DNA of 12,086 nt from a bacterium (GTDB lineage: Bacteria > Zhuqueibacterota > Zhuqueibacteria > Oceanimicrobiales > Oceanimicrobiaceae), in contig JBHHXT010000148.1 of NCBI GenBank assembly GCA_046757165.1, positions 1 to 12,086 of the forward strand, in the 5' to 3' direction. Below are positions 4,396-11,482 of this stretch, in pieces. The notes under the pieces were generated by a model. That model worked only from the letters and a program-made list of their open reading frames with translations. It was not told the DNA's origin and made no database searches. Each line of letters begins with the position of its first letter. Position 1 is the stretch's first letter. The translations under genes were made by a program, and so were the position numbers.

Positions 4396-5760
4396 CTATT
4401 GAATTGAAACAAGGCTTTGCCCGATTAGTCTTTCTAAGTCGGCAGTGGCTTTGTGGTAATCCCTCAGGGCACGCAAATACTGCCCACGCGAGTCGAAAAG
4501 GGTTCGTTGTGCATCCAGCACATCCAGAAAGCCAAATTTCCCTTGTTTGTAGCCATCGCTGATGGTATCGAAAGCTTTCTGGGCTTCCGGCAAAACGGAG
4601 GTTTGCAAGGTAGAAGCTTCGTCGAACGCGCTTGAAAGGGCTCGATAAGCTTCGGCTACAGAAGTCTTTATGCGTAATTCAGTTGCCTGACGTTCGAACT
4701 CGGCTTTATTTGAACGCAAGCGAGCTTCGCTAGCAGCTCCTTGATTCCGGTTGAAGATGGGGATAGGAATAGCTAATCCGAGGACAAAGGCGTTGTCATC
4801 ACTTTCAGCTAATCGGCGGAACCCGCCTCCAATTGCAGGATCGGGGATTTTTTGAGCTTCTTGCAACTCAACCACGGCCCGGCGTCGTTGCATTTCTACA
4901 CCCCAGCGGGCGATTTCCGGATTTTGGGAAATAAGCTCGAGCAATTCATCTATCGCCGGGATGCTTTGAGATAAGCCAAAAGTTCCTGTTACTTGTTGAA
5001 ATTGTGGCGTCAAACTGCCCCAGGTAGCAGCCAAACGTTTGCGAGCGCTTTCAAGCTCTCGTTGAGATCGTCCCAATTCAATCTGGGCATTGGACAGGGC
5101 AACGCGTGCCCTCGATTCTTCGGCTGGCGCGGTCCTTCCAGCCTGCACTCGCTGCGAAACGATGTCCACAAATTCCGCTGCCAGCTGAACCAGCTCTATG
5201 TCTAATGCCAGGCGACCCTGTGCAGACTGGACATCAAGAAAAGCTTGTGTTACGTCTGTGAGGATATCCAGGCGTTTAATTTCGAAAACCCAGGCAGCCA
5301 GGTCGCTTTCCAATGCCGCCACGCGAGTGCGTTTTCGCCGTTTGCCCCCCAATTCAATGAGTTGGCTTAAAAGGATTGTCGATTCTGTTTGTTCAAAGCC
5401 GCTCACATCCCCTGAACCACCAAAGTTCTCTAGTTCAACCTCGATCTCCGGATTAGGAAGCAGCGATGCTTGTATGGCGCGCGCTTCCCTTGCTCTCACT
5501 TCCCAGGAGAAGGCCGCCAATTCCGGGTTTCTTAACAACGCTAAGGATAGAGCCTGTCTTAACGTGAGTGTTCCTACCGGTTCCTCTACTTGAAGTAAAG
5601 ATGTATCTTCTTGAGGTATCTCTGCCGGTGCCTGATACGTTTTGTAATCTTTACCCAGTGAACGCGGCTCAGGATAGTTGGCTGCCGTGCGATAGCCAGC
5701 ACAATTAGTGATTGAGAATAACGCTGTGATTCCAAACAGCAGAGGCGCTTTCAATTGCAT
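4396..5760 (-). CDS. czcC: Outer-membrane factor (TolC/CzcC family) of the RND system, probable lipoprotein
   Basis: 454 aa. LTLRQALSLALLRNPEL, LLPNPEI, LSQLIELGGKRRKR, IPIPIFNRNQG and YKQGKFGFLDVLDAQRTL are CzcC-type OEP motifs. Signal peptide ends at SITNC. SD GGAGG at 5769-5765. Confidence 0.94.
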   Translation of the reverse strand: MQLKAPLLFGITALFSITNCAGYRTAANYPEPRSLGKDYKTYQAPAEIPQEDTSLLQVEEPVGTLTLRQALSLALLRNPELAAFSWEVRAREARAIQASLLPNPEIEVELENFGGSGDVSGFEQTESTILLSQLIELGGKRRKRTRVAALESDLAAWVFEIKRLDILTDVTQAFLDVQSAQGRLALDIELVQLAAEFVDIVSQRVQAGRTAPAEESRARVALSNAQIELGRSQRELESARKRLAATWGSLTPQFQQVTGTFGLSQSIPAIDELLELISQNPEIARWGVEMQRRRAVVELQEAQKIPDPAIGGGFRRLAESDDNAFVLGLAIPIPIFNRNQGAASEARLRSNKAEFERQATELRIKTSVAEAYRALSSAFDEASTLQTSVLPEAQKAFDTISDGYKQGKFGFLDVLDAQRTLFDSRGQYLRALRDYHKATADLERLIGQSLVSIQ

Positions 5761-5764
5761 GGTA

Positions 5765-5909
5765 CCTCCAAATCAGTCAATATTGGATTGAGCTATGTAG
5801 GAAGTCAAACAACAGCTTGACTTCCTGTGAGAACAACTCAGAAACGATGTTCTATTCGAGTTGTTCAGTCGGAAATAGTTTGCCAAATGCTCTGACTTCT
5901 TCAAGCCGA
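5765..5909. promoter_or_regulatory. Structured intergenic leader upstream of czcC (tandem hairpins plus a possible SD-sequestering stem)
   Basis: IR1 AGGAAGTCAA/TTGACTTCCT (5799-5808/5817-5826, perfect 10 bp). IR2 GAACAACTC/GAGTTGTTC (5831-5839/5858-5866, perfect 9 bp). IR3 AGTCGGA/TCTGACT (5867-5873/5891-5897, 6/7). On the mRNA strand, TCCAA...TTGGA (5787-5783 with 5771-5767) overlaps the GGAGG SD. Function is inferred. Confidence 0.5.
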
Positions 5910-5954
5910 GTGGTTAGAATAAGACATTGTCCAAAAATGAAAGCTAGCTAAGCT

Positions 5955-6320
5955 CTAGGAGAAAGATTTTGGAGGGTGAAAAATGTGGCCTGCAGACCAG
6001 CTTACAGCCTGCGGTTTTTGTAAGGTTAGAATGGTGAGAAGTGATATGTTGCTGTCAAAAGTAAAGTAAGAGGCGAGCATATTCACGCCAGAAACGCAGC
6101 ACGCACACAAAGTGCAACTGTCAGGGGGTTGTGGCTGATGCTCAGTCTGCTGGGGGTTATGGAAATGAGTTTCAGCGTTCGTTTTGCTCTCGGTGAGTTG
6201 AGAGTGAACGCCTGAGGCAAACAGTTCCACGACGTCCCAAATCGCAAGGGCGTCGAACGCAAACATGAAGAGCAGAAGACAAGTAATTACTTTTGTTGTC
6301 ATCTTAGTATGAGTAGGCAT
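5955..6320 (-). CDS. Small exported His/Cys-rich protein upstream of czcC (CzcI/DUF2946/DUF6660-like; candidate leader/arrest peptide)
   Basis: 121 aa: hydrophobic N-terminus (KVITCLLLFMFAFDALA), His-rich segment THFHNPQQTEH, Cys cluster CTLCACC and C-terminal IFHPPK. It occupies the czcI position. The start could be the second Met (MTTKV). Confidence 0.78.
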   Translation of the reverse strand: MPTHTKMTTKVITCLLLFMFAFDALAIWDVVELFASGVHSQLTESKTNAETHFHNPQQTEHQPQPPDSCTLCACCVSGVNMLASYFTFDSNISLLTILTLQKPQAVSWSAGHIFHPPKSFS

Positions 6321-6369
6321 AATAATTCAATTGTCATTAAACGATCCGTAGCGTCTCGAGTTCCACATG

Positions 6370-6443
6370 ACCTGTTGTGGCGAACGTTCAAAATAAGCAG
6401 AAATCCCGCCCTTTCCGGTCTGCAAACGTCCCCCTCAACAGGT
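6370..6443. repeat. 74-bp element with imperfect 19-bp terminal inverted repeats in the divergent promoter region
   Basis: ACCTGTTGTGGCGAACGTT (6370-6388) matches the reverse complement of 6425-6443 (ACCTGTTGAGGGGGACGTT) at 16/19 positions without gaps. Inner pair GCAGA (6397-6401)/TCTGC (6419-6423). Confidence 0.6.
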
Positions 6444-6448
6444 ATAAA
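6420..6448 (+). promoter_or_regulatory. Possible sigma70 promoter for the large secreted protein gene
   Basis: CTGCAA (6420-6425), 17-nt spacer, TATAAA (6443-6448), ending 15 nt before ATG 6464. The -35 match is weak. Confidence 0.3.
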
Positions 6449-6463
6449 TAAATAGCGACAGAT

Positions 6464-9400
6464 ATGGTTTTACGCGACTGCCTACGGACGGTTGGTCATG
6501 CATCTTTGGAGAAACTTGAATTGGCATCTAGGAATTCGCATCAGTCTGGCAAGAGTACGTTGCGCAAAGGGACCCCGTTAGGTCTTTTCGGCCTGCTCTT
6601 TTCACTTGTTCTGGCCTCGTCGGTCTTTTCTCAGCCGACCTTCACACGGCATACGATTGACAATAATCTGCGGGGGGCATACTGGGTTTATGCCAAAGAC
6701 ATCGACAAAGATGGCGACATCGATCTGGTGTCGGCCTCTTTTGACGGCACGGAGTGGTGGGAAAACGATGGCACAGAAACGTTTAGCAAGCACTTCCTGG
6801 GAACGCTGCAGGGCTCCTGGGGGGCACACGCCGACGATATAGACAACGACGGGGACGTCGACATCTTAGGCTGCTCTCCGGCTGAAGATATCACGATTTT
6901 GTATCGCAACAAAGGAGCGCAGACGTTCAGCAAGATCATCGTCGACGACCGCGGCCTGGACCCCGAGCGGGTGTTTACGGCTGACATCGACGGGGATGGC
7001 GATAAAGATATTTTGGTCCCGGTCTGGGAAAACCGCGATCTGGTGTGGTATGAGAACAGAGGTGACGCGTTTCGGAAACATACGATCGACGGCAACCTGG
7101 CTGGCGCTCATTCCATCTACGCCGCAGACTTTGACGGCGATGGTGAGCTGGATGTGGTCGGGTCAGGGTCCTCGAAGACGCGATGGTACCGGAACAACGG
7201 AGGGGGCAGTTTTACCGGCTTTACCATCGATTTCGATGGCGGCTGGAGCGTCAATGCGGCCGATATCGACCACGACGGCGATATGGATTTTGTGCGCACC
7301 CAGCGCGACAACGGCGACGTCGATTGGTACGAAAACGACGGTGACGGCACCTTCATACAACACAACATCGAGCAGGATTATGGCCAGTGCTGGTCTGCCG
7401 TGGCTGGAGACATTGATGGCGACGGGGATCTAGACGTGGCTGCCGCAGGCTTTGACGCCAACAACATCAAGGTGTGGTTCAATCTCGGTGACGGCAGCTT
7501 CGGCACCGGTATTGTGGTTCAGACTGTGAATACGCCGCGGGCCGTTTTTATCCAGGATTTGGACGGCGACGGCGACGGCGACATCGCCGCTGCCATCCGC
7601 GGGGACCGGGACCTGGTCTGGTACGAGGTGGACGGCGTTCCCCCGCCCATCGGGACGATTGCAGTGACCAGCCCAAACGGAGGAGAGACGCTTACAGACG
7701 GTCAGACGGCCAACATCACCTGGAGCTCAACCGGCCCGTTCGCTAACGTCGCTATCGATTTGTCCGTCGACAACGGCAGCACCTGGACCTCTGTTGCAAG
7801 CAATACGAGCAACGATGGCAGCATGTCCTGGACGGTCCCAGGCACGGTCTCGAATACGTGTTTGATCAAGATCTACGATGCGGCGGATGGCTTCCCTTCT
7901 GATACCAGCGATGATGTTTTCGCGATTCAGGGCGCGTCCACCCCCATGCCGGAGATTACCGCTTTTACGCCAACCAGCGGGGCGCCCGGAGCTGAAGTCA
8001 CTGTTTTCGGCAACAACTTGAGTGGGGTGACCAGCGTTCAGTTCAACGGCACTGCGGCGAGCTTTGGAGTGCAGTCAGACGGTGAAATTCTGGCCGTTGT
8101 GCCGGTCGGCGCAACCACCGGCAAGCTGAGTGTCAGCGGTAGCGCCGGTACCGGCCAGAGCGCGAACGATTTTGCGGTGACCTCCGGCAACGGCGGCACC
8201 TTGTCGACCTTCCTTCCCATCGAAGACGCCAGGGTCAAGGCGAGCCGACCGGACAACAATTATGGCTCCAGTACCAAATTGTATGTGGAACAAGGCCAGT
8301 TCAAGAGCTACTTGAAGTTTGATGTGCAGGGAGTGAGCGGCAGAGTCACACGCGCAGTTTTGCGTCTCAGGGTAGACAATGCGAGTGACGACGGGGGCAC
8401 CATTTACCTGGCTTCGAACAATTACGCCGGTACCAACGATACATGGGACGAAAAAAATCTGACGTACAACAATTCCCCGGAGATCATCAGTGCCGGATTG
8501 AGCAGCATTGGCGCTGTTGTGGTCGGCCAGCAGATCGAGTTCGATGTTACCGCGGTTGTGGCGGGAAATGGCCTTTACAGCTTTTGTCTCGCGAACACCT
8601 CCACCAACAAAGTGAATTACTTTTCCAAAGAAGGGAGCGTTACACCACAGCTCGTCATTGAAACCGACGACACGGGTGGCCCAGCTCAATATAGCTTGAC
8701 GGTTGGCGAGCAAGGCGCGGGGAGCGTGGCTCTGGACCCGGCCGGCGGAACTTATGATGAGAATACCGTCGTGCGGCTCACCGCGACTGCGGACGCCGGG
8801 TGGCAGTTTAGTGGCTGGAGTGGCGATTTGAACGGAAGTCAGAACCCGGCCACGCTTTTGATGGACGGCAACAAAACCGTCACAGCCATTTTTACCGAAA
8901 GTGGCGGCTCGCAAGCCCTTTCCTTTTCTGCGCGACATGACGGCCAGGTGAAGCTCACCGATGCCGGCGCCAACTATGGCACGAAAAGCACCACAAAGGT
9001 TGAAGTCAACAAGTTTGTTTCTTATTTCAAATTTGATGTTTCCGGATTGACGGGATCGGTACAGTCGGCCCGGTTGCGGCTCTATGTCACCGGTGCCAGC
9101 GTCGATGGGGGCGAGATTTACGCGGTCTCGAACCACTACTTGAACACGACCACGCCCTGGGAAGAATCCTTGCTGACCTCCGGCAACGCCCCTCGAGTTT
9201 CCGGTGCACCGCTGGCGAGTTTAGGCAAGGTGACCGCAAACCAGTTTGTGGAAGTGAAAGTCACAAGTGGTGTGCCCGGAAACGGGACATTCAGCTTCGC
9301 CATCAAGAACAATTCGAAGGACCTGGCAAAGTTCTACACCAAAGAAGGTGCCTTCCCGCCTGAGCTGATCGTTGAAACAGGAACGGGAGGCGGTACGACA

Positions 9401-11482
9401 CAGACGTTGTCTGTCTCGACTCAGGGGGCCGGAACCGTTACGCTCAACCCGGCCGGCGGGGTTTACGACCAGGGCACGCCGGTGCAGTTGACCGCCACTC
9501 CGGATGCCGGCTGGCAGTTTAGCGGCTGGAGCGGCGATTTGAGCGGTGCAGCCAACCCGGCTTCCATCACCATGGATGCCGACAAACAGGTCACGGCAAC
9601 GTTTACTGAAGTGAGTGCGCCACAATATACCCTGACCGTGACGACACAAGGCTCGGGCAGCGTTGCGCTCGACCCTGCGGGAGGGGTGTATGATGACGGC
9701 ACACAGGTACAGTTGACCGCACTGCCGGCGGCGGGCTGGCAATTTAATAGTTGGAATGGTGACCTGACAGGTACAGAAACGGTCAAGACAGTGAGCATGA
9801 CCTCGCACAAGAATGTCAGTGCCACGTTTACAGAACAAAGCGGGGGCGGCAACGCGATCACTTTCACTCCCATCGAGGATTCGCAAGTCAAGTCCACCAG
9901 GCCCACGCGAAGCTACGGCGGAGAACCTGTCATCCGGGTTCGGAAGGGCAGTCCGACTTACATGTCTTATTTGAAGTTTGATGTCAGCGGATTGCCGGGT
10001 CCTGTCACCCGTGCGACAATTCGGCTCTATGTTTTGGATGAGGGGCCGGATGGGGGCTCAGTTTATTCTGTGTCTAACCATTATAAGGGAACGAATGCGC
10101 CGTGGGATGAAGATGGATTGGTCTGGGATAACGCGCCTGTCATAGATGGTGCTGGGCTCAGTAGCGCAGGCCCGGTTCAGCTTGGGACCTGGATTGAGCT
10201 GGATGTGACCCAGGCCGTTGTGGGAAACGGCGTCGTCAGTTTCGGCATGTTGAACAATGCCTCGAACAGCGTCAAGTACAGCTCGAGCGAAGGGGACCAC
10301 AAACCCGAGCTGGTGGTTGCGTCGGATGCAGGAAGCGGCGCCGAAAACAGCCCGCCTGTGGCTGTCGATGATAACGAAACAATCGAACCGGGCCTCGCTG
10401 TGGTCACGAGCGTGGCTGAGAATGATTTCGATCCGGACGGAACGGTCGATGTGACTACGATCACGATCATCGACCAGCCTGCGGACGGTTCTGTTTCTGT
10501 CAATCCCTTTTCAGGGCTCGTGACGTATCTTCCCGGCAGCAATTTTTCTGGCAGCGATAGCTTCACCTACACCATCAGGGATAATGACGGCGCGACCTCG
10601 AACATTGCGACCGTCACGGTTCAAGCGGCCGGCGGCGGTGGCACGGTGACACTCACCTTCGGGGCAACCGAAGACAGTCAGGTGAAGGTGACCGAACCGG
10701 GCAGAAACTACGGAGCGAAGACGACGACAAAAGTCGAGAAAAATATGTTCCGCTCTTATTTCAAGTTTGACCTGACGGGCATCACCGGGCCGGTTCAAAA
10801 TGCCAGGCTTCGCTTGTTTGTCACGGGCGCAAGTGTGGACGGCGGCTCGGTTTATCAGGTATCCAACCAGTTCTTCAACTCAACGACCCCCTGGCAGGAG
10901 GAGACTCTGACCGCCGGGAACGCCCCCCAGATTTCCGGGGCGCCAATCTCCACCCTGGGGGCAGTCCCCCTGGATACGTTTGTGGAATGTGATGTGACAG
11001 CGGCCGTCGATGGCAACGGCGTGGTTAGCTTTGCCGTTGCGAGCACCACCACCGACCAGGCCCGGTACAGCACCAGGGAAGGCCTTCATCCCCCCAAGCT
11101 TATCGTGGACTTCAGCACGACATCTTCTCCGGTGTCAAAGGAGACGGAGGATGGAATCACTCTGCAGCGGCCATCGGGAAACAGCACGGCCCCGGTTTTG
11201 CCCGACAGGGTGAGCCTCAGTCAGAACTATCCCAATCCCTTCAACGCCGGGACTACCATCGAGTATGCGCTGCCGCAGCGCACGCATGTCAAGATTATCA
11301 TCTACAATCTCCTGGGCCAGCAGGTCCGCATCCTGGTCGATGGCGTGCAAGCGGCCGGGTTCAAAAAGGTTCAGTGGAATGGCAGAAACAAGGCCGGCCA
11401 CGACGTTGGGACGGGCGTTTATTTCGTCCGCTTGGTCGTCGGTGAGCGGAAGTTGATTCGGAAGATTACTTTGCAGAAATAA
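6464..11482 (+). CDS. Large secreted multidomain protein: FG-GAP/VCBS beta-propeller, Ig-like, IPT/TIG, 4x DNRLRE/CBM96-like, 3x InlB-B-repeat-like, Big_9-like, and C-terminal T9SS-type/FlgD-Ig sorting domain
   Basis: 1672-aa ORF. Signal-like LGLFGLLFSLVLASSVFS-QP; seven DxDxDG(D/E)xD motifs; VTSPNGGE domain; ITAFTPTSGAPGAEVTVFG (IPT); four 'D..V......NYG....SY.KFD.SG..G.V..A.LRL.V' modules; three 'G.G.V.L.PAGG.YD..T.V.LTA....GWQF..W.GDL' modules; NSPPVAVDD..DSFTYTIRDNDGATSN; LSQNYPNPFN..IYNLLGQQVR..WNGRN..G..VGTGVYF. The true start may be downstream (e.g. TTG 6560). Confidence 0.92.
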   Translation: MVLRDCLRTVGHASLEKLELASRNSHQSGKSTLRKGTPLGLFGLLFSLVLASSVFSQPTFTRHTIDNNLRGAYWVYAKDIDKDGDIDLVSASFDGTEWWENDGTETFSKHFLGTLQGSWGAHADDIDNDGDVDILGCSPAEDITILYRNKGAQTFSKIIVDDRGLDPERVFTADIDGDGDKDILVPVWENRDLVWYENRGDAFRKHTIDGNLAGAHSIYAADFDGDGELDVVGSGSSKTRWYRNNGGGSFTGFTIDFDGGWSVNAADIDHDGDMDFVRTQRDNGDVDWYENDGDGTFIQHNIEQDYGQCWSAVAGDIDGDGDLDVAAAGFDANNIKVWFNLGDGSFGTGIVVQTVNTPRAVFIQDLDGDGDGDIAAAIRGDRDLVWYEVDGVPPPIGTIAVTSPNGGETLTDGQTANITWSSTGPFANVAIDLSVDNGSTWTSVASNTSNDGSMSWTVPGTVSNTCLIKIYDAADGFPSDTSDDVFAIQGASTPMPEITAFTPTSGAPGAEVTVFGNNLSGVTSVQFNGTAASFGVQSDGEILAVVPVGATTGKLSVSGSAGTGQSANDFAVTSGNGGTLSTFLPIEDARVKASRPDNNYGSSTKLYVEQGQFKSYLKFDVQGVSGRVTRAVLRLRVDNASDDGGTIYLASNNYAGTNDTWDEKNLTYNNSPEIISAGLSSIGAVVVGQQIEFDVTAVVAGNGLYSFCLANTSTNKVNYFSKEGSVTPQLVIETDDTGGPAQYSLTVGEQGAGSVALDPAGGTYDENTVVRLTATADAGWQFSGWSGDLNGSQNPATLLMDGNKTVTAIFTESGGSQALSFSARHDGQVKLTDAGANYGTKSTTKVEVNKFVSYFKFDVSGLTGSVQSARLRLYVTGASVDGGEIYAVSNHYLNTTTPWEESLLTSGNAPRVSGAPLASLGKVTANQFVEVKVTSGVPGNGTFSFAIKNNSKDLAKFYTKEGAFPPELIVETGTGGGTTQTLSVSTQGAGTVTLNPAGGVYDQGTPVQLTATPDAGWQFSGWSGDLSGAANPASITMDADKQVTATFTEVSAPQYTLTVTTQGSGSVALDPAGGVYDDGTQVQLTALPAAGWQFNSWNGDLTGTETVKTVSMTSHKNVSATFTEQSGGGNAITFTPIEDSQVKSTRPTRSYGGEPVIRVRKGSPTYMSYLKFDVSGLPGPVTRATIRLYVLDEGPDGGSVYSVSNHYKGTNAPWDEDGLVWDNAPVIDGAGLSSAGPVQLGTWIELDVTQAVVGNGVVSFGMLNNASNSVKYSSSEGDHKPELVVASDAGSGAENSPPVAVDDNETIEPGLAVVTSVAENDFDPDGTVDVTTITIIDQPADGSVSVNPFSGLVTYLPGSNFSGSDSFTYTIRDNDGATSNIATVTVQAAGGGGTVTLTFGATEDSQVKVTEPGRNYGAKTTTKVEKNMFRSYFKFDLTGITGPVQNARLRLFVTGASVDGGSVYQVSNQFFNSTTPWQEETLTAGNAPQISGAPISTLGAVPLDTFVECDVTAAVDGNGVVSFAVASTTTDQARYSTREGLHPPKLIVDFSTTSSPVSKETEDGITLQRPSGNSTAPVLPDRVSLSQNYPNPFNAGTTIEYALPQRTHVKIIIYNLLGQQVRILVDGVQAAGFKKVQWNGRNKAGHDVGTGVYFVRLVVGERKLIRKITLQK
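6632..7636 (+). repeat. Seven FG-GAP/VCBS-like Ca-binding repeats (predicted 7-bladed beta-propeller)
   Basis: DIDKDGDID, DIDNDGDVD, DIDGDGDKD, DFDGDGELD, DIDHDGDMD, DIDGDGDLD and DLDGDGDGD, each followed by a W/Y-Y/W-E/R-N type motif at roughly 47-49 aa periodicity. Confidence 0.85.
8210..11112 (+). repeat. Interleaved intragenic domain repeats: DNRLRE/CBM96-like (~8210-8665, ~8924-9380, ~9863-10320, ~10658-11112) and InlB-B-repeat-like (~8690-8899, ~9404-9610, ~9626-9835)
   Basis: Self-similarity in the translation (YFKFDVSGLTGSVQSARLRLYVTGASVDGG vs YFKFDLTGITGPVQNARLRLFVTGASVDGG) and in the DNA (TGGCAGTTTAGTGGCTGGAGTGGCGATTTG vs TGGCAGTTTAGCGGCTGGAGCGGCGATTTG). Boundaries are approximate. 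Confidence 0.82.

Follow-up and report, generated by a model that had tools for sequence, protein, structure and literature searches.

Exported leaders that respond to metals are already in print. CutF-like proteins have been defined by four features, namely their length, an export signal, a gene close by and a Pro-Pro motif in the C-terminal 15 residues (Ozturk 2023, 10.1101/2022.11.11.516240, PMC9973294). The accessible text of that study counts 5,334 of them, most often next to OEP (CusC/CzcC) genes and mostly with gaps under 100 nt, and discusses a 45-residue motif distance and the SecY vestibule, with 30 + 17 residues to span. For CutF itself, from Rhodobacter capsulatus, Cu-induced stalling at PPP is described in the available part of a preprint (10.1101/2025.02.05.636593). 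CruR of Bordetella pertussis, a DUF2946 (PF11162) protein, combines a conserved spacing with Rho control and a gap of 162 nt, according to the accessible portion of Roy 2022 (PMC9426467). CutF and CruR, the two characterised leaders, are both copper sensors in Proteobacteria.

We analysed a stretch of 12,086 nt from a bacterium of the phylum Zhuqueibacterota (the window), in which a short open reading frame precedes genes for a metal pump on the same strand. The 'czc' names used here are labels only and imply no Zn, Co or Cd assignment. The leader and pump features are as follows.

5955–6320, reverse strand: leader open reading frame, 121 residues, unnamed CutF-like family (open reading frame call, coding signal and alignment)
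6243–6320, reverse strand: predicted Sec signal peptide, residues 1–26, ending in A-L-A as judged by eye (hydropathy, helix and Ala26)
6138–6206, reverse strand: His-containing linker, residues 39–61, four His, low model confidence, variable in length
6096–6116, reverse strand: Cys cluster CTLCACC, residues 69–75, putative metal site (family D-x-C-x-x-C-x-C-C)
5970–5984, reverse strand: IFHPP, residues 113–117, putative pause motif (family [IVF][FY][HR]PP)
4396–5760, reverse strand: outer-membrane factor, CzcC-like, PF02321
3423–4412, reverse strand: periplasmic adaptor, CzcB-like, PF16576
199–3309, reverse strand: RND permease for heavy metals, scoring above the TIGR00914 cut-off (ZneA is its closest solved structure)

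The leader is a real coding gene: in all six pairwise comparisons among four genomes, third codon positions were the least conserved (0.33–0.50 compared with 0.45–0.73). An alternative start lies at Met7 (6302), and the stop codon is separated from the czcC-like gene by 194 nt. The original prediction had described an N-terminal export or transmembrane segment, which was borne out: the mean Kyte-Doolittle hydropathy over 19 residues reaches 1.98 at residues 10–28, Ala26 is kept in at least 90% of 18 aligned family members, and an AlphaFold model computed from these 18 sequences contains one confident helix (residues 3–41) and no globular fold (pTM 0.31), so that a signal peptide is predicted. 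It had also placed the Cys cluster at 6096–6116 and IFHPP at 5970–5984, with exactly 40 codons between the last Cys and Pro-Pro, and we confirmed these positions and the distance (residues 76–115, between Cys75 and Pro116). Two of its descriptions needed tempering, since the 'terminal' IFHPP is followed by four more codons (KSFS) before the stop, and the 'His-rich stretch' is present but modest.

Relatives of the leader were collected by phmmer with the window protein against 1.84 billion representatives. This search gave 18 hits; one (P0019, a 306-residue repeat protein, E 4e-4) was dropped, and the remaining 17 were aligned with the query to give 18 members, which share 20–50% pairwise identity. 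D67, C69, C72, C75, P116 and P117 are invariant, [HR]PP is found in every member and RAPP in none, and Pro-Pro lies 4–8 codons from the stop throughout. The distance from the last Cys to Pro-Pro was 40 in all 18 members and in both of two later hits (20/20), whereas the control segment from D29 to C69 in the same alignment came in seven lengths, from 36 to 45. The control segment has an identity similar to that of the spacer (0.20 against 0.24), and a query-based search is biased towards ungapped relatives, a bias to which both segments are subject. The conservation of CxxCxCC, Pro-Pro and their spacing that the original prediction presupposed is therefore present, with a motif that, as it had proposed, is not RAPP. 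The fixed 40-residue distance throughout the relatives makes nascent-chain metal sensing likely.

A strong family match was found in 4 of 167 genomes of the phylum, with weak matches containing an internal stop in two more, and scans of genomes and metagenomes yielded the G011 and G022 loci and no others. DNA was thus at hand for four family loci, in the window genome (G000), G011, G012 and G022. No Pfam or NCBIfam family matched the window leader over cut-off, and a joint profile of 28 sequences retrieved 24 proteins, none of which carried a Pfam domain. In the Atlas, the leader lies near clusters labelled DUF2946 and DUF6660, with scores of 0.95–0.96 that are a lead only; one cluster, 94% of which is DUF6660, reaches 0.95 on features. 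Judged by its sequence, the leader family is new and unnamed, within a class that is already described.

By length (121 residues, under the limit of 150), by the position of Pro-Pro (116–117 of 121, and within the last 15 residues in 18/18 members) and by a same-strand neighbour within 1000 nt at 4/4 loci (gaps of 194, 111, 330 and 159 nt), the leader agrees with the published definition of CutF-like proteins; its hydropathy, helix and A-L-A site, judged by eye, are compatible with a Sec signal. Like CutF, it is small, has a predicted Sec signal, a Cys motif, Pro-Pro near the C terminus, a structure that would cover a Shine-Dalgarno (SD) sequence and a detoxifying gene downstream. Unlike CutF, which has CxxxC and PPP, it carries CxxCxCC and HPP, together with the 194-nt gap, an anti-SD predicted within the Pro-Pro codons and an ECF-type promoter, and it has no sequence match to the family models. 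An HPP cluster may already be among the leaders of Ozturk 2023. The locus does not represent a new kind of system: in that study, exported leaders that end in Pro-Pro stand most often in front of genes for RND outer-membrane factors.

With CruR, the leader shares the position of an upstream open reading frame, an export signal, a CXXC (C69-x-x-C72) at conserved spacing from the arrest motif, a long gap and a tract with more C than G. It differs from CruR in having FHPP rather than RAPP, 42 residues from CxxC to HPP compared with 45 to RAPP, and an exporter downstream instead of a TonB importer. DUF6660 (PF20365) proteins, on which our literature search found no paper, also combine a signal, an acidic/His linker and a Cys cluster, and end in IW-QPP; the DUF6660 genes of the phylum (L043–L045) precede, by eye, TonB-dependent-receptor-like genes and not pumps. 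Membership of DUF2946 or DUF6660, raised in the original prediction, was not found, the window leader being below cut-off in both: PF11162 did not match it and matched 1/18 members (E 0.022), and PF20365 matched 0/18 members and nothing in G000. Comparison with DUF6660 by hhalign, from three sequences only, gave a probability of 5%, with the last nine columns alone aligning. On present evidence, the leader is outside PF11162 and PF20365 by HMM, yet appears to work like them. The CopL family (NF033807), which acts in cis, and Cupriavidus CzcI are likewise small exported proteins before metal-resistance genes; NF033807 gave nothing for the window protein and weak matches in 2/18 members (best E 3e-4).

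The neighbours of the leader are metal export genes at 4/4 family loci, with a czcC-like gene directly after it at three. At the fourth, in G022, the leader is followed by an RND cluster in fragments (L042:5995-7455; a 107-residue czcC-like piece and two czcA pieces), together with genes for P-II and for a heavy-metal ATPase; the leader, P-II and ATPase genes are intact. The window permease matches the structure of ZneA best (744 bits), followed by CusA (680 bits). R, S and E align to the three periplasmic methionines of CusA, which we take to be the mark of a Cu/Ag pump, and the methionines of this CusA-type test are absent. The fourth transmembrane segment (TM4) reads AIAIGMIVDGS, compared with AIDFGIIVDG in ZneA, and so lacks the DFG that is presumably the signature of CzcA/ZneA-type divalent pumps. 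The G022 ATPase carries SPC and HEGST, which we assume to denote the Co/Zn/Cd subtype. As far as these residues tell, the substrate is likely to be a divalent metal. The accessible part of PMC7060636 divides the pumps into classes by TM4 and assigns monovalent cations to one class.

The absence of a flanking regulator, also part of the original prediction, holds upstream; downstream, the contig stops 198 nt past the czcA-like permease gene. No CsoR/RcnR gene was found in G000, and none of the 123 matches to the CusR/CzcR family was over cut-off. Elsewhere in G000 (C431), a second czcBA copy, 83–88% identical to that of the window, is cut by contig ends, and the assembly lacks the region upstream of it.

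The leader is most likely, on these features, a nascent-chain metal sensor of the known class. By analogy with CutF, it would be exported co-translationally and pause at HPP with its His linker in the periplasm and its Cys cluster at the SecY exit, and metal bound by the leader would lengthen the pause. The original prediction had put the Cys cluster simply outside the ribosome; with 30 + 17 residues to span, and if export is co-translational, residues 41–47 from the active site would instead sit inside the SecY channel or where it opens into the periplasm. HPP was unreported as an arrest motif in the literature we searched, and the accessible part of PMC10987492 makes no mention of it. The output of such a pause could lie in the RNA between the two genes, which has the following features.

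5765–5769, reverse strand: SD sequence GGAGG of the czcC-like gene, read from the sequence
5968–5975, reverse strand: anti-SD 1, CCUCCAAA, in the Pro-Pro-Lys codons, complement of 5772–5765 (8-bp helix; inverted repeat I11)
5871–5877, reverse strand: anti-SD 2 (UAUUUCC), a back-up stem that becomes the SD partner once anti-SD 1 is masked
5831–5866, reverse strand: hairpin 1, with a 9-bp stem at its base and without a U tract
5799–5826, reverse strand: hairpin 2, of 12 bp and without a U tract

The original prediction had proposed a stem over the czcC SD and overlooked the anti-SD in the Pro-Pro codons. Either of two stems is predicted to pair the SD, the helix with anti-SD 1 having a mean pair probability of 0.78. 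Because the Pro-Pro codons are predicted to pair with the SD, a ribosome paused there would mask the anti-SD: it would cover CCUCCAAA and czcCBA would be translated, and without metal the leader would be released and then degraded. We consider the chances about even that the leader is a CutF-like nascent-chain metal sensor whose pause at HPP frees the czcC SD from anti-SD 1. In favour of this reading are the invariant spacing, the 39- and 38-residue spacings of related leaders described below, the metal-export context, the missing globular fold and the published precedent of CutF. A duplex between Pro-Pro codons and SD was also predicted at 4/4 loci (−10.4 to −12.8 kcal/mol), with CCT as the first Pro codon at all four. 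Synonymous recoding equalled the observed pairing in 14%, 12%, 27% and 3% of 2000 trials. The SD of G022 differs, and its best partner is its own leader (−11.9 against −7.0); across the four loci, two SDs have their own leader as best partner, for one SD it is tied, and for one (G012) it is the worst, the last of which speaks against the pairing. Masking the ribosome footprint made the SD cheaper to open by 2.3, 2.4, −0.2 and 2.5 kcal/mol, gains that are small and not significant in any single locus (8–76% of 25 shuffles were as large). The back-up stem still pairs the window SD, so support for an anti-SD is modest, and the 194-nt gap exceeds most CutF-like gaps. In a sister family with an HPP end, masking had no effect on SD opening at the 11 loci computed, and the own pairing stood at −6.1 against −6.5 for cross pairing (n = 18); an SD-opening cost was obtained for 15 of 30 loci, three more lacking a start. 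Overall, the models lend modest support to the view that the Pro-Pro codons sequester the ribosome-binding site of czcC.

The tandem hairpins of the original prediction form with a pair probability of about 1.0, but they are not a conserved RNA element. The intergenic fold is better than that of shuffled sequences (z −3.0, 3/200 as good), as is the region 5740–5990 (z −3.8, 0/200 as good); in the three relatives, the gap showed no sequence conservation and folding z values of −1.3, −1.3 and −1.7. Five Rfam covariance-model matches in 5600–6600 were all far below the gathering score. We rejected the hairpins as a genomic repeat (best other match 15–19 nt, E 0.87) and as intrinsic terminators.

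The main rival explanation is Rho-dependent attenuation of the CruR kind, which we regard as possible but doubtful. Here the pause would hide a C-rich Rho site at and after the Pro-Pro codons, the hairpins would pause RNA polymerase, and metal-induced pausing would let transcription enter czcCBA. The gap is long, like that of CruR, and contains no intrinsic terminator. C exceeds G in the 50 nt past the stop in 29 of 30 leaders of the HPP, QPP or RPP type, with a mean C/G skew of 0.38 compared with −0.01 in 894 control gaps of G000. Of 29 leaders, 28 use CCT or CCC for the first Pro of the motif, compared with 34% in long open reading frames of the same loci and 57% at other leader prolines. 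However, these leaders are related to one another, the control comes from a single genome, the window tract is weak (12 C and 8 G; 18% of controls are as skewed), and the pyrimidine tracts could equally be anti-SDs. Moreover, metal ends the stall of CruR and turns its genes off, the opposite sign to that expected for a pump. For the window family, we rank anti-SD release ahead of Rho attenuation as the output.

Transcription of the leader may be under separate control, by an element that the original prediction had also missed.

6337–6364, reverse strand: predicted ECF-sigma promoter, −35 GGAACT at 6364–6359, N16, −10 GTTTAA at 6342–6337

The −10 element ends 16 nt before the leader ATG, with no SD in between. 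In three of the four genomes (G000, G012 and G022), GGAACT-N16-GTT(T/A)AA stands 7–16 nt ahead of the leader start in upstream regions that have otherwise diverged among the four loci; the motif is degenerate in G011. GGAAC with cGTT is the consensus of ECF sigma H/E promoters in the accessible text of PMC10012870. Within G000, GGAACT-N16-GTTNAA occurs twice, before the leader and before an ECF sigma gene that is found in 40/41 genomes, and a GGAAC-N17/18-GTT site is present at 22 of 30 ECF sigma loci. A matrix built from 13 sites before this sigma gene in other genomes scored the leader sites at 12.8 (window), 13.2 and 11.0, scores reached by 9, 6 and 31 of 5098 regions upstream of open reading frames in G000, and at 0.7 in G011. 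Genome-wide counts of the strict pattern were at chance (9 matches, 4 of them inside open reading frames, compared with 16 for the reversed control in three genomes), so the promoter claim rests on position and conservation. The ECF-type promoter is predicted to drive the leader transcript. Since it lies just upstream, there is probably a further control besides the leader. The core of the original prediction, a cis-acting nascent-chain sensor like CutF and CruR, has strong comparative support from the invariant Cys, Pro-Pro and spacing. The sigma gene of G000 (C31:11448-14002, L090) is followed by putative anti-sigma and trypsin-PDZ (HtrA-like) protease genes, and a conserved GGAACTTT-GGTTGAA site is found at this gene (L090, L092–L121). 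A similar site precedes an open reading frame, TolQ/ExbB-like as judged by eye, in G000 (C24) and G022 (C392). Of three look-alike promoter hits first taken for sigma-gene promoters, two proved not to be. G012 has an ECF sigma/zf-HC2 pair about 5 kb upstream, to which we drew no link from the promoter.

This promoter could also explain regulation if the leader were a free periplasmic protein that binds metal or modulates the pump in trans, as CzcI might, with transcriptional control through the ECF or an internal promoter. The predicted cleavable signal and the Cys and His ligands would suit such a protein, and CzcI precedes czcCBA and, unlike the window leader, has no Pro-Pro motif. We consider this improbable, because it leaves the fixed, unstructured 40-residue spacer, the invariant near-terminal Pro-Pro and the biased Pro codons unexplained. 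The independent promoter in 5761–5954 that would have told against the sensor comes down to a weak sigma70-like site at 5808–5779 (9/12) that overlaps hairpin 2, and such sites in the gap are at chance level (three found, 1.1 ± 1.0 expected). Least probable, to a point where we give it very little credence, is a SecM-like pause that reads envelope export or disulfide capacity, with Cys disulfides pulling the chain and metal acting indirectly: the promoter does match that of a sigma gene with a putative anti-sigma and a trypsin-PDZ protease, and disulfide pulling is proposed in the accessible part of the CutF preprint (10.1101/2025.02.05.636593), but the contexts are metal export at 4/4 loci and Sec, YidC or Dsb at none.

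Returning to the nascent-chain sensor, an envelope-stress ECF sigma factor would supply transcription and so give the system two inputs. We think it rather unlikely that every element of such a two-input gate is right, namely a near-leaderless ECF-sigma mRNA, an HPP arrest peptide, a 40-residue ruler, a non-copper metal and stall codons that double as the anti-SD. If true, it would mean that nascent-chain metal sensing also serves RND pumps, uses a new arrest motif, reads a metal besides copper and is tied to a stress regulon. A literature search pairing CutF or CruR with ECF, leaderless, uORF or zinc found no paper. With a spacer free of indels in 20 sequences, an HPP end and a pump without the CusA methionines, the family is an unusually sharp test set for two questions, whether leaders of this class sense metals besides copper and whether the site is set at the SecY exit by the ruler; the anti-SD in the stall codons and the ECF promoter are two testable extras.

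Related leaders occur elsewhere in the phylum. From 61 genomes we took the 30 best czcC-like loci and classed them by eye: 12 have an exported leader of the Pro-Pro type, 10 an exported open reading frame with a hydrophobic end (LLI, YLI, LRI or LLL), 2 (L014 and L026, one of them confirmed) a CsoR/RcnR-type repressor in the leader's place, and 6 no leader or a contig end. As short exported open reading frames precede 22 of the 30 czcC-like genes sampled, leaders may be the phylum's usual control of metal export. The sister family, CxCxCH...HPP, aligned with the window family by hhalign (89%, E 2e-6) and is present in 25/167 genomes. Its spacing was 39 in 21 of the 22 sequences extracted from 27 loci (five were missed by the pattern), and among database hits it was 39 in 19 of 22, 37 in two and 27 in one; in three DUF6660 members from the phylum it was 38. 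Spacings of 40, 39 and 38 across three families suggest that a ruler of 38–40 residues is kept with different Cys motifs. At 10 of 21 sister-family loci (L046–L069), a sigma70-like −35/−10 pair ends 4–9 nt before the leader start, compared with 84 of 3456 control genes; by this prediction, the mRNAs of these loci are near-leaderless.

A second class consists of small exported Cys/His-rich open reading frames before metal RND outer-membrane genes, mostly without a terminal Pro-Pro and ending in LLI, YLI, FLI, LII or LRI at the stop (L004, L005, L007, L017, L020–L023, L028 and L030). No Pfam or NCBIfam family was found in the eight tested. They could be termination-arrest leaders, or their ends could be degradation tags. 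The window genome has its own examples (G000 C481:2159-1665, C91:17108-16719 and C40:9399-9812).

Upstream of the leader and divergent from it, the window encodes on the forward strand (6464–11482) a secreted-type protein of 1672 residues with FG-GAP repeats, four CBM96 modules, InlB-like and Ig repeats and an FlgD-like C terminus. The divergent region shared by the two genes contains a 19-nt inverted repeat (6370–6388 and 6425–6443).
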